From an uncultured Gemmatimonadaceae bacterium (GTDB lineage: Bacteria; Gemmatimonadota; Gemmatimonadetes; Gemmatimonadales; Gemmatimonadaceae), in assembly GCA_963790305.1 (NCBI GenBank), contig CAWBOC010000005.1, positions 800,001 to 864,000 on the forward strand: a stretch of 64,000 nt of DNA. Direction: 5' to 3'. The position numbers and the translations under genes are program-made. The notes under the pieces are model-generated. The model ran no database searches, was not told where the DNA came from, and saw only the letters and a list, made by a program, of their open reading frames with translations. Shown here one piece after another: positions 4,913 through 23,211 of the stretch (position 1 is the first letter of the stretch; the number at the start of each line of letters is the position of its first letter).

Positions 4913-5839
4913 TCAATCTTCTCCTGCGCGCGTGCTCATGACGCCCGTTCCCTTGACGGAGGGCGTCTCGTCGCCGTCCCGCCGCAAGAGGATCTCCAGC
5001 TCTCGCTCGCGCAGGTCGAACGGATATCCGGCGCCGACGATGCCGACCCGGAGATAGCTCAGCGTCAGCGGCGCACCCTTTTGCGCCTCCTCCGCATTGT
5101 CGAACCGGACGCCACGACCGTCCACGAAGTAGACGGAGCCGTTGCCGACGACCTCTCCGAGGTGCCCACGCACGACGAGAGCGGTGTCTTCGTCGATGCC
5201 GAGGCCCATGAGCTCGGGATTCTCGGCCACGCGGCGGAACAGGCGCTGGAGCCGTCCTCGCTTCGAGAAGTGCGTATCGATGAGCGCGGAGAAGCCTAAC
5301 AAGCCGAAGCCGGGACCAAGGTAGAGCGGCACTTCCTGTCCTTCCTCATCGATCTCTCCGCCGGCGAGCATCGTCTCGGACAGCGCCGCGGCACCCGCGC
5401 TCGTTCCACAGACGATGGCCCCGTTGGCGAACGCTTCCTTGATGGCGCGACCGACGCGGGAACCGCTCAGAGTGGCCACCAGGTGCACCTGATCACCGCC
5501 GCCCAGGAAAATGCCTTGCGCATCGAGGACCATTTGCGCGATGCGTGCGTCCTGCGCGCGCGAGCGTCGGTCGATGATCGGGAGCTCCACGTTGGTCGCG
5601 CCCGCCTCGGCGAACGCATCCTTCCAGGCGATGGCGGAGCCGACGGGGTCGGTCGACGCAGTGGTGAAGCCGACGATCTTGCCCCCTTCACGGGCGTTGC
5701 AGCCCTGAAGAAAGACGTCCATCGCCGGCCCCTTGGGGTCGAGCGCTCCGCCGATGAGGATCAGCGTCCCCGCTTTACGATCGTCGTGGCGCGAGGCGGG
5801 CTGTTGCGCGCGCTCCTGCGGAAGACGTGCGGTCGTCAT
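4913..5839 (-). CDS. cphB: Cyanophycinase (peptidase S51)
   Basis: LILIGGA, GGGDQ, GTSAGA (Ser), DTHFSKRGRLQRL (His), GIDEDT (Glu); last gene of the cphA operon. Confidence 0.88.
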   Translation of the reverse strand: MTTARLPQERAQQPASRHDDRKAGTLILIGGALDPKGPAMDVFLQGCNAREGGKIVGFTTASTDPVGSAIAWKDAFAEAGATNVELPIIDRRSRAQDARIAQMVLDAQGIFLGGGDQVHLVATLSGSRVGRAIKEAFANGAIVCGTSAGAAALSETMLAGGEIDEEGQEVPLYLGPGFGLLGFSALIDTHFSKRGRLQRLFRRVAENPELMGLGIDEDTALVVRGHLGEVVGNGSVYFVDGRGVRFDNAEEAQKGAPLTLSYLRVGIVGAGYPFDLRERELEILLRRDGDETPSVKGTGVMSTRAGED

Positions 5840-6901
5840 GCCGTCGCGACCTGCGTGCTCTCGCGATTCAGCTCCTCGGTCGCGAACATGGCCAGTGCGC
5901 CCGCGACCTGTGCCGCGATCGCGACATCATCGCGAACTACGCCACCGTCCACGGTTCGCTCGTAGGTCTGCAGGGCGATGCGCCCATCGCGCACGAGCGC
6001 GACCGCGCACGCTACGCGCTGATCGCGCACGGTGACGTCATCATCCGTCGCGAAGATCGCGACGCGGCAGCTCTGCTCGCGCGCGTAGTCCTGAATCTCC
6101 CATTCCTTCGCCGGCACGATGACGACCCCGTCCCGACGCACACAATCGGCGAGCACGCCCACGAGCCGCTGGGCACGATCGGCATCGCGATACCGGTCGG
6201 GCACATCGGTGAGCTCGGCGTCGAGGATGATCGCCATTCTCGGAGCGGGCGTAGGGAAGCCCCGCCTCGAGGAGATACGAGGGCGAGATGTCGACCACGA
6301 GCTCGGCGTCACTCAGCCCGCGGCGAAGCATCTCTTCACGCGTCTCGTGACGCGGACCGCCTCCGGTGATGCCGCAGAGCACGCGCTGTCGAAGCGCCGG
6401 GGCGTCGGGCGTGTCGAGAAGGGCGCTCAGCTCGCGCACGGCGTACTCCACGCCATTGAGAGTGCCGCCAAACGCTCGCTGCACGATCTCCAGCGCCAGG
6501 GCGCCAGCGCGAAGCCCCGCCTGCTCGTGCCAATGCTCGAACACCACCGTGTATTCGCCGGGCACGTCGCCACCGCGCGTCTTCCCATATCCCACGTCGA
6601 GTCCGGCCATGACCTGCAGCTCGAGCGCGACGTGCTCGATGACATGGGGAGCGTAGGTCCCGCGCGCGAGCCGTTGAAGGAAGCCGCCCCGCTGGCCAAT
6701 GCTGCAGCGATGCTCGATCAGCCCTGGCATCGCGTTGCGCAGTGACTCGAGTACGCCGGGGACGTGCGCCGATGAGATTTCGTCGTACCGTCCCACGACG
6801 AGATCCAGACGCGTCACCGGGCGCTGCGACCAAAAATTCGCTCCGCGGAGCGAGTGGAGGCCCGTGAGCTGGATCTCCGTCGCGGGGACGAGCTCGCTCA
6901 T
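5836..6901 (-). CDS. Truncated CphA paralog: N domain plus degenerate Mur-ligase core, no ATP-grasp domain (frameshift near 6237)
   Basis: LRGANFWS, C-x19-HVIEH; C-terminal half aligns by eye to the CphA M-core without the GKT motif; ATGA overlaps with both neighbours. Confidence 0.8.
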
Positions 6902-9569
6902 GAGGCCTTCGAGCCTCCCAGCCCACGCACATGCTCGAGGACGCCCCTCACATCGTCCGCCAGTATTACCGCCAGATCGTTCGTGTCGAGGAGCGCGACG
7001 GCACGCTCGACGGCCTCGATCTCGGAATGGACGACCTCGACGCGCTCCTCGGGCAAGCCAGCCTCGAGCAGGCCCTCGATGAGCAGAGCCGCAACCTCAC
7101 CGCGCCGGCGCCCGCGTCGGTCGTCGTCTTCCTTCACGACGACATGGTCGAGCGATCCAGCGAGACGGCCCACGGCGCGAATGTCCTCGTCTCTCCGGTC
7201 GCCGGGAGCGGCGAGCACGCCAATGCGCCGGCGCGCCGGGAGCTGCTGCACCAGCTCCATCAGCCCCTGCACGGCCGCCGCGTTGTGCGCGTAGTCAATG
7301 AGCAAGCGGGCGCCATTCATCCGAATCAGGTTCAGGCGGCCGGGTGTCATCGACGGCGACGGGAAGAACGAAAGAAGCCCCGCTCGAATGTCGTCGTACC
7401 GAACACCCTGGACGTAGGCGGTGGCGATTGCCGCCAGCACGTTCCCGCGCTGGAATCGTGCGGCCCCTCCCATCATGAGTGGCACATCGCGCACGGCGGC
7501 GATCGGAATGCGCAGCCGTCCGCGGCGAATGACGAAGGTGTCGTTCTCGATCAACGTCGCGATGCCGTTGCGGCCGATGTGATCGGCGACGGCCGGGTTC
7601 GCGCCTTCGTCGTCGGTCGAAAAGAGAACGACATCACCCGGCGACCGGTCGCGCATCGCGTAGACGAGCGGATCATCGGCGTTGAGCACCGCGTGGCCTT
7701 CACGCTTCACGACGGCGGCGATGACGCTCTTCACCTCTGCCAGCTGCTCCAGCGTATGAATGCCGCGCAGGCCGAGGTGATCCGCGCTGACGTTGAGGAC
7801 CACGCCGACGTCGCACTCGTCGAACCCGAGCCCCGCCCGCAGAATGCCGCCGCGCGCCGTCTCGAGCACCGCGACGTCGACCGCCGCGTTCGACAGGATG
7901 ATGTTGGCGGAGAACGGGCCGGTCATGTCCCCTTCCATGACGAGCCGGTTGTTCAGGTACACGCCGTCGGTGGTCGTTAGGCCCACCGCGCGGTCGGTGT
8001 GGCGAAAGAGATGCGCGATGAGCCGCACCGTGGTCGTCTTGCCGTTCGTCCCGGTGACCGCGATGACGGGAATGGTGCAGTCGCTCCCCGGCGGGTAGAG
8101 CATGTCGAGGATCGGCGCCGCCACATTGCGCGCCTGCCCCTCCGCCGGGTGCGTGTGCATGCGAATGCCCGGGGCCGCGTTGACCTCGATGATGACGGCG
8201 CCGTTGTCGCGGAAGGGCACGGAGATGTCCGCCGTCATGACGTCGATGCCCGCGACGTCGAGCCCCACTGCTCCGGCCGCCATCTCGCACGCGGTGGCGT
8301 TGTCGGGATGAATCTCTTCAGTGCGATCGATCGCCGTTCCGCCGGTCGACAGGTTGGCGGTCGGTCGCAACGCGACGACTTCTCCCTTCGGCGGCACCGA
8401 GTCGAAGGTGTACTCGCGCTCGGCCAGGTACGACGCGGTGAGCTCATCGAGCGGCAACCGCGTGAGAATCTTCGTGTGCCCGAAGCCGCGCCGTGGATCG
8501 CGATTCTCGATCTCGATGAGCTCGCCGGATCGTATGTGTCCCATCTCCGATCACGCGCGCTGGAACGCGCTCCGCGACCGCCACGACCTTCCCGTTCACC
8601 ACCAGCACCCGATGGTCGGTGCCGTCCACGTAGCGCTCGACGACCACGGCGTCGGAGACGGCGTGCGGTTGCCGCCACGACGCGCGCACCGCCTCCTCAT
8701 CATCGAGGCGAGGTGGAGATGCCACGCCCGTGACTGGCATCGAGCGGCTTGAGGATCACCGGATACCCGATGCGCATCGCGATGTCCACCGCTTCCTCGA
8801 CATCGTCGGCCACGTCGCCCACCGGCACCGGCAAGCCGATCGACTCGAGAACGCGCTTGGTCTCATCCTTGTTCTGGGCGATCTCGACCGCGATCGAGCT
8901 CGTGCTGTCCGCCATCGTCGCTTGAATGCGCCGCAAGTTCTTGCCCAGGCCGAGCTGGACCAGCGAGCGCGAATTGAGACGCCTAACGGGGATCCCGCGG
9001 CGGCGCGCCTCCTCGACGATGGCACCCGTGGACGGGCCCAGCCGAACCTGCTGCCAGAGCGCCTGCAGGTCGGGGACGAGGCGGTCCATGTCGGCCGTCT
9101 CACCCGCGATGCATGCCTTGACCAGTCGCACGGCCTCGCGCACGGCACGAAGACCGACTTCCTCCTCCTCGTAGGCGACCATGACCCACCACACGCCCGC
9201 GTCCCCGGACGGCACCACACGCCCGAAGCCGACGTCGCTACCGGCGAGGACCTGCAGCTCGAGCGCGACGTGCTCGAGGATGTGCGGCAGGTGCGTGCCC
9301 TCGCGCAGCCGCTCGACGAACCCACCCGCGACGCCTCGAGAGCATTCGTGCTCGCGCAGGGAAGGGAGCAGGGTCGTCAGGCGCTCGGTGAAGTCGGGCA
9401 GGTCGGCCGAGGAGACGTGCTCCAGGCCGCCGAGGGCGACGTCGCAGGCGATCACGGGAGCGAGACGCCAGTAATTCGGTCCGCGAAGGGCACGAATGCG
9501 AGTAACGCGAAGGTCGTCGGGGCGAAGGTCCGGCGCGAGGTTGGTCGCGCCAGAGAGCGGCTCGGACAT
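6898..9569 (-). CDS. cphA: Cyanophycin synthetase CphA1, about 890 aa (frameshifts near 8715 and 8526)
   Basis: LRGPNYW, C-x19-HILEH, KPLDASHGRG, DHRVLVVNG, ANLSTGG, EVNAAPG, AVTGTNGKTT, DYAHN across three consecutive ORFs. Confidence 0.93.
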
Positions 9570-9880
9570 CGAGGGTTAGCTGCAGGTCAGCGGGCGCGAC
9601 GTCTAAGTCGCAGGGATTCTTGCTGTTCAGCGATAGTCACACCGCGCAAAAGCGCAGAAAGCAGGCCACCCCGCGGCGGCCCCGCGCGCGCAAAAAAAAC
9701 CTCGGCGGCGCGCGAAACATCCGGAGAACCGGCACGAGTTTACAACGCGTTGCGCTGCAAAGTCTTGGGCGTCTTTCCAGTGGCACGATTTCGTACGTCC
9801 GCACGCCGTGCACCTTCGTTGCGCCTCGACCTCCGGATGTCATCCGCGATGTCGAGCGCGTTCTCATTCGCTGCTCCTGG

Positions 9881-11240
9881 ATGTCGAAGACGCCGACACC
9901 CACTGCACTGCGCGCCATGCCGCGCGCCGTCAGCCAATCAGCCCCACGCATTCCGCACCTGACGCCCGTCGCGTCGAGGCAGATTGAGCGTGTCACGGCC
10001 GAGGAGCAGGCGAACGGAGAGATTCTGCTCTGGCAGAGCACCATCCGGCTGGCGCTGCTCGGACTCGCCCAGGCGGTGGCGGTCGGCATCCAGGTGCTCA
10101 CGGTGTCCCCGGTCCCGCTCGGCAACCTCGCCGTGCTCGCGGCCTTGTACGCGATCGTGGTGCTGGCCGTCAGCGCAGTCGTCAGGCAGCGCGGGGGAGC
10201 GCGTGATTGGGTCATCGGCGCGGTGGTCGCGGCCGACATTCTCTTCCTTTTCGGCGCCGTATTCCTTGCCGTCCCGCCCCATCACTACGCGCGAACGCTG
10301 CTCGTCGCGTTGATCATCCTGCACCTCACCGAATTCCACTTCGGTCGCCGGCTCGCGGTGAGCGCGCTGGTGCTGATGTCGGTGCTGTATCTCGCGATGG
10401 TGATGTTCGCGCTCGATCAGGGTGCCGAGCTCGAGTGGGTTCACGAGATGTCGTCGCTGGCGGTGTTCATCCTCGCCGCGGGCTCCTTCGTCTTCCAGTA
10501 CGGCACGTTCAAGAGCCGTCTCGCGCGTCTCGCGCGCCTGTTCGAGAACGCGGAAGAGGGCGACTTCGCCGCCACCTATGACGTCGAGGCCGATCGCCGC
10601 CCCGACAGCATCACGCACCTCGGCCGCTCGTACAACCGGCTACGCACGCAGCTCGCGCAGATGGTGCTGACCGATCCGCTCAGCGGTTGCGCCAACCGGC
10701 GCGGGTTCGAGCAGCAGTTCAAGCGCGAGATCGCGCGTGCGGCTCGGCAGGGAACGAGCATCGCGCTCATCGCCGTCGATGTCGACATGTTCAAGGAGAT
10801 CAACGACTCCTATGGGCATCTCGGCCGGGGATGGCGTCGTGCGCGATCTGGGATCGCTGCTTCGCGAAGTGGCGCGTACCGGGGATCTCGTTGCGCGCAC
10901 GGGGGGTGACGAGTTCGCGATCCTGCTGCCCGACACGGAATCGGATGGCGCCTTCCATCTCGCCATGCGCGTCCGCGATGTGGTCGCGTCGCACCGGTTC
11001 CCCTCGGTCCGTGGGCGGCATTGCATTACGGTAAGTCTCGGCGTGGTGGCCGATCGCGCTCCCGATGCGAACATCGCGCACGATCTTCACTCCCGCGCGG
11101 ACGAGGCGCTGTACGCGGCGAAGGATGCCGGCCGGGACCGAGTGTGCTTATGGACGTCGGACCTGCGCGCGGTGGCGGTCACGGCGGCGCATCACCGGGT
11201 GACGCAGCCGTTGCGGACGGGGGAGCACAAGGTCGAATAG
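9881..11240 (+). CDS. Membrane diguanylate cyclase (several TM helices, HAMP-like linker, GGDEF; frameshift near 10823)
   Basis: TDPLSGCANRR, DVDMFKEINDSYGH, RTGDLVARTGGDEF (RxxD I-site), ADEALYAAK; start codon uncertain. Confidence 0.88.
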
Positions 11241-22802: not shown

Positions 22803-22833
22803 TTGATCGTTTCGCGATGGCGGGAGGTTCGGG

Positions 22834-23211
22834 ATGCGGAAAAAGGACAAGAAGCTCATCGTCGTCGGCGATCGCGTTCTGATCGCGATCGAGGAGGGTG
22901 AAGAGCGGACGAAGGTCGGCCTCTATCTCCCTCCGTCGGCGGTCGACAACCAGGCGGTGCAGGGCGGCCGGATCGTCGCTACCGGGCCGGGACTTCCGAT
23001 GCCCGATCCTGGGGAAACGTCCGACGAGCCCTGGCGGACGGCCGCGCGGGAGACGCGCTTCGTGCCAATGCAGGCGAGGGTTGGCGACTACGCGCTCTTC
23101 TTCCGGCGGGCCGCGGTCGAGATCACGTTCGAGAGCGACCGGTATCTGGTGGTACCGCAGACGGCGATTCTCGCGCTCGTCCGAGAAGGCGCCGTCCGCG
23201 AGGAGGACTGA
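22834..23211 (+). CDS. GroES-family co-chaperone (orphan, with insertion)
   Basis: VGDRVLI, EERTKVGLYLP, GRIVATGPG, VGDYALF. Confidence 0.85.
   Translation: MRKKDKKLIVVGDRVLIAIEEGEERTKVGLYLPPSAVDNQAVQGGRIVATGPGLPMPDPGETSDEPWRTAARETRFVPMQARVGDYALFFRRAAVEITFESDRYLVVPQTAILALVREGAVREED

Follow-up and report, generated by a model that had tools for sequence, protein, structure and literature searches.

A 64,000-nucleotide stretch of the genome of an uncultured Gemmatimonadaceae bacterium (GCA_963790305.1, contig CAWBOC010000005.1, positions 800,001 to 864,000; hereafter the window) encodes a 354-residue protein, here called X, between the genes for a cyanophycin synthetase (cphA1) and a cyanophycinase (cphB). 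X joins the N domain of CphA1, with its predicted metal-dependent peptidase site intact, to a remnant of the Mur-ligase-like core (Mcore) that has lost its ligase residues. We consider it reasonably likely that X is a separate, zinc-dependent endo-cyanophycinase, predicted to act in trans and split off from the synthetase.

Accounts of cyanophycin metabolism usually feature a synthetase, an exo-cyanophycinase, and dipeptidases. To our knowledge, internal cutting of the polymer is known only as a cryptic side activity within the synthetase. No stand-alone N-domain or N-Mcore protein was found described in the full-text literature searched, with subscription papers and supplementary files outside that search; literature matches to the name "CphA3" were examined and turned out to be resistance-gene and Aeromonas studies. 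A 2023 census of cyanophycin gene clusters is described as covering only known gene types in RefSeq (PMC10206079). Judged from its sequence, X is a known catalytic module in the form of a separate, conserved, lineage-restricted protein. The features of X and of its two neighbors, in window positions, are the following.

5836..6901, minus strand: gene X, a 354-aa CphA1-derived protein (N domain plus ligase-dead Mcore remnant), read through the almost certainly spurious extra base at 6237
6398..6901, minus strand: N domain of X, residues 1-168, with the CphA1 N-domain fold (PF18921, family profile, model overlay)
6632..6706, minus strand: metal and catalytic motif of X, C66-x19-H86-x2-E89-H90 (computed coordinates, family invariance)
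6344..6376, minus strand: degenerate P-loop remnant of X, C-G-I-T-G-G-G-P-R-H-E (CphA1 counterpart T-G-T-N-G-K-T-T), read from the sequence
5839..6397, minus strand: Mcore remnant of X, residues 169-354, ending at the last Mcore helix, with a Mur-ligase middle-domain fold lacking ATP and Mg ligands
6237, no strand: one surplus base that breaks X into two frames, almost certainly an assembly artifact, left out in relatives
6898..9569, minus strand: cphA1 (cyanophycin synthetase 1), in three frames through extra bases at 8525 and 8714, with derived R-V-V...W residues at its N site
4913..5839, minus strand: cphB (cyanophycinase, S51 family, TIGR02069), whose start overlaps the X stop (ATGA)

Peptidase site and ligase remnant of X

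The extra base divides X into two overlapping open reading frames (ORFs) on the minus strand, 6901-6041 (286 aa) and 6312-5836 (158 aa). The first piece matches PF18921 (CphA N domain) with an E-value of 1.8e-35 and 121.8 bits, against a gathering threshold of 27, and has no other Pfam match; the intact homolog P0003 scores 120.1 bits. A profile of the X family matches residues 2-138 of the CphA1 structure 7lg5 (E 1.1e-39). The N-domain site of CphA1 is defined in PMC9262961 by the motif C-x19-HxxEH. The original prediction had reported this motif, intact and equally spaced, both in X (6632-6706) and in the adjacent CphA (9270-9344), and both pairs of coordinates proved exact.

Conservation extends well beyond the motif. 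H64, C66, S67, F74, R77, H86, E89, H90, and E94 of X are invariant in all 64 rows of the family alignment, and Y117 is present in 63. Their equivalents in SuCphA1, taken from the printed 7lg5 alignment, are H57, C59, S60, F67, R70, H79, E82, H83, E87, and Y110, which PMC9262961 describes as ligands, base, or polymer contacts. The predicted metal ligands (C66, H86, and H90), the predicted general base (E89), and the second-shell residues of X are therefore invariant across the family. Beyond the N domain, D252 (60 of 64 rows) aligns with E607, a polymer contact in the M domain of SuCphA1, and the loop that contacts the M domain stays hydrophobic in X, with Phe or Tyr at position 23 followed by an invariant W24.

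An AlphaFold model of X, computed with the 64-sequence alignment, has a mean predicted local distance difference test score of 95.0 and a predicted template modeling score of 0.88. The best Foldseek matches to this model, a prediction of X alone as the original prediction had proposed, are the solved CphA1 structures (E about 1e-15, query-normalized template modeling scores of 0.75-0.81). VIA-align superimposes residues 10-346 of the model on residues 1-710 of chain 7txv_A, the E82Q variant of CphA1 with cyanophycin bound at the N site, with a Z-score of 32.6 and a root-mean-square deviation of 2.6 Å over 330 residues. Because this overlay spans both domains, the N domain and Mcore are predicted to be packed in X as they are in CphA1, with the G domain missing; the rigid N-Mcore arrangement is the same in the model as in the synthetase. 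The C-terminal half alone aligns with Mur-ligase middle domains at Z-scores of 13-15 over about 155 residues. A complex prediction of X (alignment A2) with CphB (alignment A3) gave run scores of 0.69, 0.00, and 0.00, with a median below the mark, and counts neither way.

The second piece of X has no Pfam match; in NCBIfam it matches CphA positions 586-666, but only weakly. Measured against whole-protein CphA1 profiles, the N piece reaches 140.1 bits where the cut-off is 850, and the C piece is picked up only by NF010623 (E 0.0058). The searches returned no match to PF08245 (Mur_ligase_M), either in the X pieces at E ≤ 0.01 or in P0003 at E ≤ 0.001, and none in X to an S51 or TIGR02069 cyanophycinase domain. 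The family profile does reach the M domain of CphA1, over residues 552-647 of 7lg5 (E 4.9e-6) and 553-671 of 7wac (E 5.7e-7). In place of a functional P-loop the family has G-G-x-x-R-x with no Lys-Thr (G180 in 64 of 64 rows and R184 in 60 of 64); the position of the Mg-binding Glu is occupied by A/S206 and that of the DH-motif His by V233, the ligase roles of these M-domain residues being taken from PMC9427784. X ends at the last Mcore helix and has no Mlid; judged by eye against the window CphA, it also lacks about 45 residues that would link the P-loop helix to the following core strand.

These results bear out the architecture first proposed for X. The ATP-grasp domain is indeed absent, with no Pfam match to one in the X pieces or P0003 and a structural alignment that skips the G domain. 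The resemblance to a Mur-ligase core, originally drawn by eye, is recovered by the profile matches to the CphA1 M domain and by the fold matches to Mur ligases, and the erosion of the P-loop is a family-wide trait. The description of X as ligase-dead fits the sequence, in which other residues stand in place of the P-loop Lys and Thr, the Mg-binding Glu, and the His of the DH motif. Several residues of the remnant are strongly conserved and specific to the family, namely R184, G214-L-P216-Y217, D232-V-P-x-R236-Y237, P263, and W267 (P0003 numbering; about 6100-6350 in the window).

Family, origin, and partner synthetase

A search with the first piece of X retrieved 1229 proteins at E ≤ 0.001 from 8000 scored candidates. 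The best homologs are 352-366 aa long and up to 94% identical, matched up to the frameshift point (77% of the query). Among the 120 matches listed, all named organisms belong to Gemmatimonadota, one record being labeled only "soil metagenome", and the records are named "hypothetical protein", "cyanophycin synthetase", or "cyanophycin synthetase family protein". A library of representatives at 50% identity holds about 30 near-full-length X clusters, extending down to about 36% identity.

Genomic context was read from the best 80 loci; every record whose title gives a taxon is from Gemmatimonadota, and one is labeled only "bacterium". The original prediction had named the existence of full-length homologs, the conservation of the motif and of the cphA-X-cphB order, and the ratio of nonsynonymous to synonymous substitution (dN/dS) as points by which it could be checked or refuted. 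Full-length homologs are numerous: in 80 of 80 loci one uninterrupted reading frame of X spans both halves. The C-x19-HxxEH motif is likewise present in 80 of 80 loci, as in all 64 alignment rows. Neither of the two refuting outcomes at stake here, a lack of conserved homologs of this architecture and a loss of the motif among them, was observed. The gene order is kept as well. The end of cphA lies within 400 nt upstream of X in 62 of the 68 loci with room to see it, and at 0.4-1.4 kb in a further five, with a spacing of 0-140 nt in most loci; the start of cphB falls no more than 500 nt downstream in 68 of 72 loci, and of the four exceptions two overlap the X stop. For X, pairwise dN/dS (Nei-Gojobori; 54 loci, 1187 of 1431 pairs) comes to 0.34, with 0.27 in the N half and 0.39 in the C half, comparable to 0.27 for cphA and 0.37 for cphB; these values are rough, dS being about 0.9-1.0. 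The ratios indicate that X is under purifying selection. Given also its intact frame, motif, and gene order, X is not a decaying duplicate.

Individual loci depart from the pattern. One (L078) carries an X-cphB pair with no cphA seen within 7 kb upstream of X, and another (L048) has an over-long X reading frame of 517 aa. At least seven loci have a further S51 cyanophycinase-like gene close to the operon, a divergent one that shares 33-37% identity with cphB:

L019, 7306-8076, strand opposite the operon
L021, 5126-5974, strand opposite the operon
L029, 5809-6579, strand opposite the operon
L060, 411-1187, strand opposite the operon
L067, 3448-4254, same strand as the operon
L077, 8089-8865, strand opposite the operon
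L082, 2195-2962, strand opposite the operon

Other proteins of 420-510 aa combine a CphA-like N domain with an Mcore and have no ATP-grasp domain, their P-loops ranging from intact GKT to fully eroded (P0166, P0177, P0200, P0210, P0219, P0256, P0160, P0183, P0187, P0220, and P0230). All but P0220 were looked up, and these ten are single-member clusters, most of them on short contigs. These singletons did not establish a real G-less N-Mcore family or a common origin with X; the nearest relatives of P0230 are 735-aa betaproteobacterial CphA proteins.

An N-domain tree that also included 11 CphA1 representatives from outside the X-partner pair places X in one clade (support 97/93) and the adjacent CphA1 proteins in another (100/99), with the two as sisters (83/84); only midpoint roots were used. 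A second, quick tree to which the common Gemmatimonadota CphA1 proteins were added gave, by the Shimodaira-Hasegawa-like approximate likelihood ratio test, 98 for X, 97 for the partner CphA1, and 93 for their sister relationship, with the common Gemmatimonadota CphA1 as a separate clade at 100. The trees thus point to a single origin of X, sister to the partner CphA1 clade. The two differ at three N-site positions (SuCphA1 numbering), of which T101 and Y110 are described as polymer contacts and R102 as merely conserved (PMC9262961):

X (77 loci): position 101, T 60, A 16; position 102, R 77; position 110, Y 76
Adjacent CphA1 (62): position 101, V 60; position 102, V 62; position 110, W 58
Other CphA1 representatives (11): position 101, T 8, A 3; position 102, R 10; position 110, Y 11

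By this comparison X retains the ancestral polymer-contact groove, which the partner CphA1 has altered to V/V/W while keeping its metal site.

A sample of 201 Gemmatimonadota genomes contains 59 with a CphA-type N domain and 8 with full-length X; in all 8, cphA lies about 3 kb upstream of X. The accompanying N-site census covered 58 N-domain regions, 55 of them readable, plus the window and a same-genus genome (G170). The V-V-W type of CphA1 occurs in 10 genomes, 8 of which also have X and 2 a second, canonical CphA1 (G182 and G019). Among the readable genomes, 45 have just one CphA1, and it is never of this type. The pattern is compatible with a division of labor following duplication. G182 and G019 both carry two full-length CphA1 genes, one V-V-W and one canonical with Cx21 spacing, and no X (G182 contig C28, 25444-25917 and 32022-32522; G019 contig C4, 17940-18356 and 22875-23348); the members of each pair are about 5-6 kb apart. 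The common Gemmatimonadota CphA1 has the motif C-x21-HxxEH, with two residues inserted before the first His (loci L088-L142), and a strict Cx19 census would wrongly score it as lacking the N-domain site.

Frameshifts in the window

The extra base at 6237 reads T on the plus strand and A on the minus strand. Removing it yields 354 aa, so that the single-base correction originally placed near 6237, with a product of about 355 aa, has been pinned to that very position. Residues 1-222 of P0003 are 93% identical to the first ORF and residues 211-354 are 79% identical to the second. Both junctions of X, to cphA and to cphB, compute as ATGA overlaps, as had been claimed. cphB scores 191.8 bits against TIGR02069 (cut-off 126.6).

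The neighboring cphA is itself broken by two one-base insertions, at 8525 and 8714, which the original prediction had not mentioned. Its minus-strand frames run from 9569 to 8700, 8740 to 8444, and 8544 to 6898, and they match positions 2-266, 268-345, and 329-859 of NCBIfam TIGR02068. An alignment with the same-genus genome G170 (85.6% identical over 6.3 kb) reveals four uncompensated extra coding bases in the window, at 6237 in X, at 8525 and 8714 in cphA, and at 10823 in a GGDEF gene (9620-11240, plus strand). Related soil-bacterium contigs, about 90% identical, have one base fewer at each of 6237, 8525, and 8714.

Six long housekeeping genes, mostly essential, were sought in the window's own genome (13 contigs). 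rpoB, gyrA, and secA are unbroken; rpoC has one break, dnaE one, and ileS two, making 4 breaks in about 19.5 kb (contig C9 of this genome, G000: rpoC at about 423285, dnaE at about 541670, and ileS at about 65100 and about 63455). By frame arithmetic all 8 breaks, four in the window and four in housekeeping genes, fit a +1 insertion. The organism's own reads were sought in sequencing runs, and the best run contained 0.09 of the sampled words. Because rpoC, dnaE, and ileS are similarly broken and relatives do not have the extra base, the break at 6237 almost certainly arose in the assembly and is not a property of the gene, and X is very probably intact in the organism.

It is correspondingly improbable that the window copy of X is a true pseudogene in a decaying cph operon with three frameshifts in 4.7 kb. 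The insertions are uncompensated, one in X, two in cphA, and one in the GGDEF gene at 10823, and these four breaks in about 5 kb are denser than was noticed across the remaining window. Against decay, three of the six long genes checked are equally split (rpoC once, dnaE once, ileS twice), the shared +1 arithmetic of all eight breaks is a systematic signature, and the pieces contain no internal stops or further damage, those of X remaining 93% and 79% identical to the intact homolog. Programmed frameshifting was ruled out, as the extra base is missing in relatives and the same type of break occurs in essential genes. GroES was dropped as another broken gene, the partial Cpn10 match at 22807-23208 being one open 134-aa frame. 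Until this assembly has been polished, any "pseudogene" or "split gene" reported from the genome deserves suspicion.

Proposed function and comparison with known systems

In the scheme we propose, X would have arisen by duplication of the neighboring CphA1, would then have shed the ATP-grasp (G) domain, Mlid, and every ATP and Mg ligand of Mcore, and would have retained both the peptidase site in the N domain and the side of Mcore packed against it. We infer that a stretch of cyanophycin is held across X's N/Mcore groove and is cut internally, as at the N site of Synechocystis CphA1. The Mcore remnant may have been kept both as a scaffold, since without Mcore the N domain by itself is insoluble, and as a component of the binding groove. 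In PMC9262961 the excised SuCphA1 N domain is described as insoluble unless mutations are made in its hydrophobic loop, the one touching the M domain. The cuts made by X would give CphA1 its primers or provide the exo-acting CphB with fresh chain ends. A precedent for such action in trans is reported in PMC9262961, where the excised SuCphA1 N domain rendered the primer-dependent TmCphA1 primer-independent. The same paper notes that when one enzyme performs both hydrolysis and synthesis, expression cannot balance the two; a separate X gene would remove this constraint, and hydrolysis could then be set independently of synthesis.

Because the partner CphA1 carries the changes T101V, R102V, and Y110W, some or all of the partner's N-site function has probably passed to X. 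A fuller subfunctionalization is plausible but more tentative. Here X would be the founding member of an endo-cyanophycinase family that kept the ancestral groove; CphA1 would keep polymerization while its N-site contacts drifted, and a V-V-W CphA1 would need either X or a second, canonical CphA1 for primers. Such a division could allow separate control of chain cutting, both for the start of synthesis and for providing CphB with more ends.

Several observations weigh against an endo-cyanophycinase. Two polymer contacts of SuCphA1 are unconserved in X, E90 (T, A, G, or S) and S603 (S, G, or A), and the N site of CphA1 is described in PMC9262961 as a slow enzyme with no transition-state stabilizer. 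In 62 of 63 loci the C/H/E/H site is still present in the partner CphA1 itself, which makes X unnecessary as a mere source of a missing motif, and with full-length X in only 8 of the 59 CphA-bearing sampled genomes, most cyanophycin users manage without it. The co-occurrence of X with V-V-W CphA1 involves one origin of X and one CphA1 clade and therefore amounts to one evolutionary event and not to 10 independent cases. Finally, the conserved residues of the Mcore remnant (R184, GLPY, DVPxRY, P263, and W267) could point to another function.

One alternative is a non-catalytic cyanophycin binder, in which the N/Mcore groove would serve a granule coat, chain-length control, or the regulation of CphA1 or CphB. 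The CphA1 N domain is described as also anchoring nascent chains (PMC9427784, PMC9262961), the ligase half of X is already catalytically dead, and the remnant carries conserved surface motifs of its own. A pure binder would, however, be expected to lose at least the base, yet none of the 64 rows departs from E89 or from any of the three metal ligands, all 80 loci have the motif, and the N half of X evolves as slowly as cphA (dN/dS 0.27 for both); we regard this role as unlikely. It is less likely still that X works only as a subunit, assembled with the partner CphA1 into a hetero-oligomer in which it would provide the N-site function altered in the partner's own N domain, and is never a free enzyme. 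Such a partnership would suit the occurrence of V-V-W CphA1 only beside X or a second CphA1, the ATGA overlap of cphA and X in the window and their spacing of 0-140 nt in most loci, and the contacts that the CphA1 Mcore is described as making with Gcore modules of other protomers (PMC9427784). But X has no Gcore, which makes the large dimer interface according to the same source, and the Gcore surfaces of the CphA1 tetramer are already taken by the enzyme's own Mcore; this alternative in any case overlaps the endo-cyanophycinase and does not oppose it. The least probable proposal, to which we give very little credence, is that X acts on a substrate other than cyanophycin or that its Mcore remnant has acquired a new ligand-binding or regulatory role, such as nucleotide or amino-acid sensing through R184 and the DVPxRYR loop. 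Remnant residues without a CphA1 counterpart are conserved family-wide, and further G-less N-Mcore proteins with intact to eroded P-loops exist in metagenomes, but all canonical ATP and Mg ligands of X are lost, and its tight, conserved position between cphA1 and cphB together with the retained cyanophycin-contact residues ties it to cyanophycin.

If X is an endo-cyanophycinase, a natural carrier of the N site alone would be a further enzyme of the cyanophycin pathway and a clean case of the two activities of one enzyme separated onto two genes. X would offer a direct in vivo test of the role of the N site that leaves the polymerase untouched, and it could find use in biotechnological cyanophycin production as a soluble, ready-made source of primers or as a trimmer of chain length.

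X can be set apart from other proteins with which it shares a motif, a fold, or a substrate. The M16 inverzincins also have HxxEH, followed by a downstream Glu, Asp, or His ligand within the large M16 fold, whereas X has an upstream Cys ligand, as in CphA1, and no Pfam match to Peptidase_M16. The Mur-ligase middle domain (MurC-F, FolC; PF08245) has the fold of X residues 169-346, but in X there is no match to the Pfam family and the ligands are replaced. CphB and CphE (peptidase S51) hydrolyze cyanophycin, as X is proposed to do, and CphB is encoded beside it; CphB is described as an unrelated serine exopeptidase that releases dipeptides, whereas X would cut internally with a metal.

Among the systems closest to X is CphA2 (7ta5, 8fxh), likewise a reduced CphA with an Mcore lacking the P-loop and Mlid (PMC9427784), to whose structures X aligns with Z-scores of 13-14. 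The reduction has run in opposite directions: CphA2 keeps the G domain and polymerizes beta-Asp-Arg, and its N domain is described as being without the peptidase motif (PMC9262961), whereas X is the reverse. From CphA1 as a family (TIGR02068 / NF010623) X differs in scoring below the cut-off and in lacking the ATP-grasp domain, the GKT P-loop and Mg ligands, and Mlid. The engineered SuCphA1 N domain (Y14S/I17T) supplied in trans to TmCphA1 (PMC9262961) is the precedent for the role proposed here; that construct needed solubilizing loop mutations, whereas X keeps both the hydrophobic loop and its Mcore cover. Also close is the "cryptic third active site" of the CphA1 N domain itself (SuCphA1, 7txv; Sharon et al. 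2022, PMC9262961), with which X shares the fold, C-x19-HxxEH, the second shell, and the packing against Mcore. In SuCphA1 this site is one domain of an 870-aa synthetase; X, with no G domain, Mlid, or ATP site, is a separate 354-aa gene product, and its dosage could therefore be set independently.

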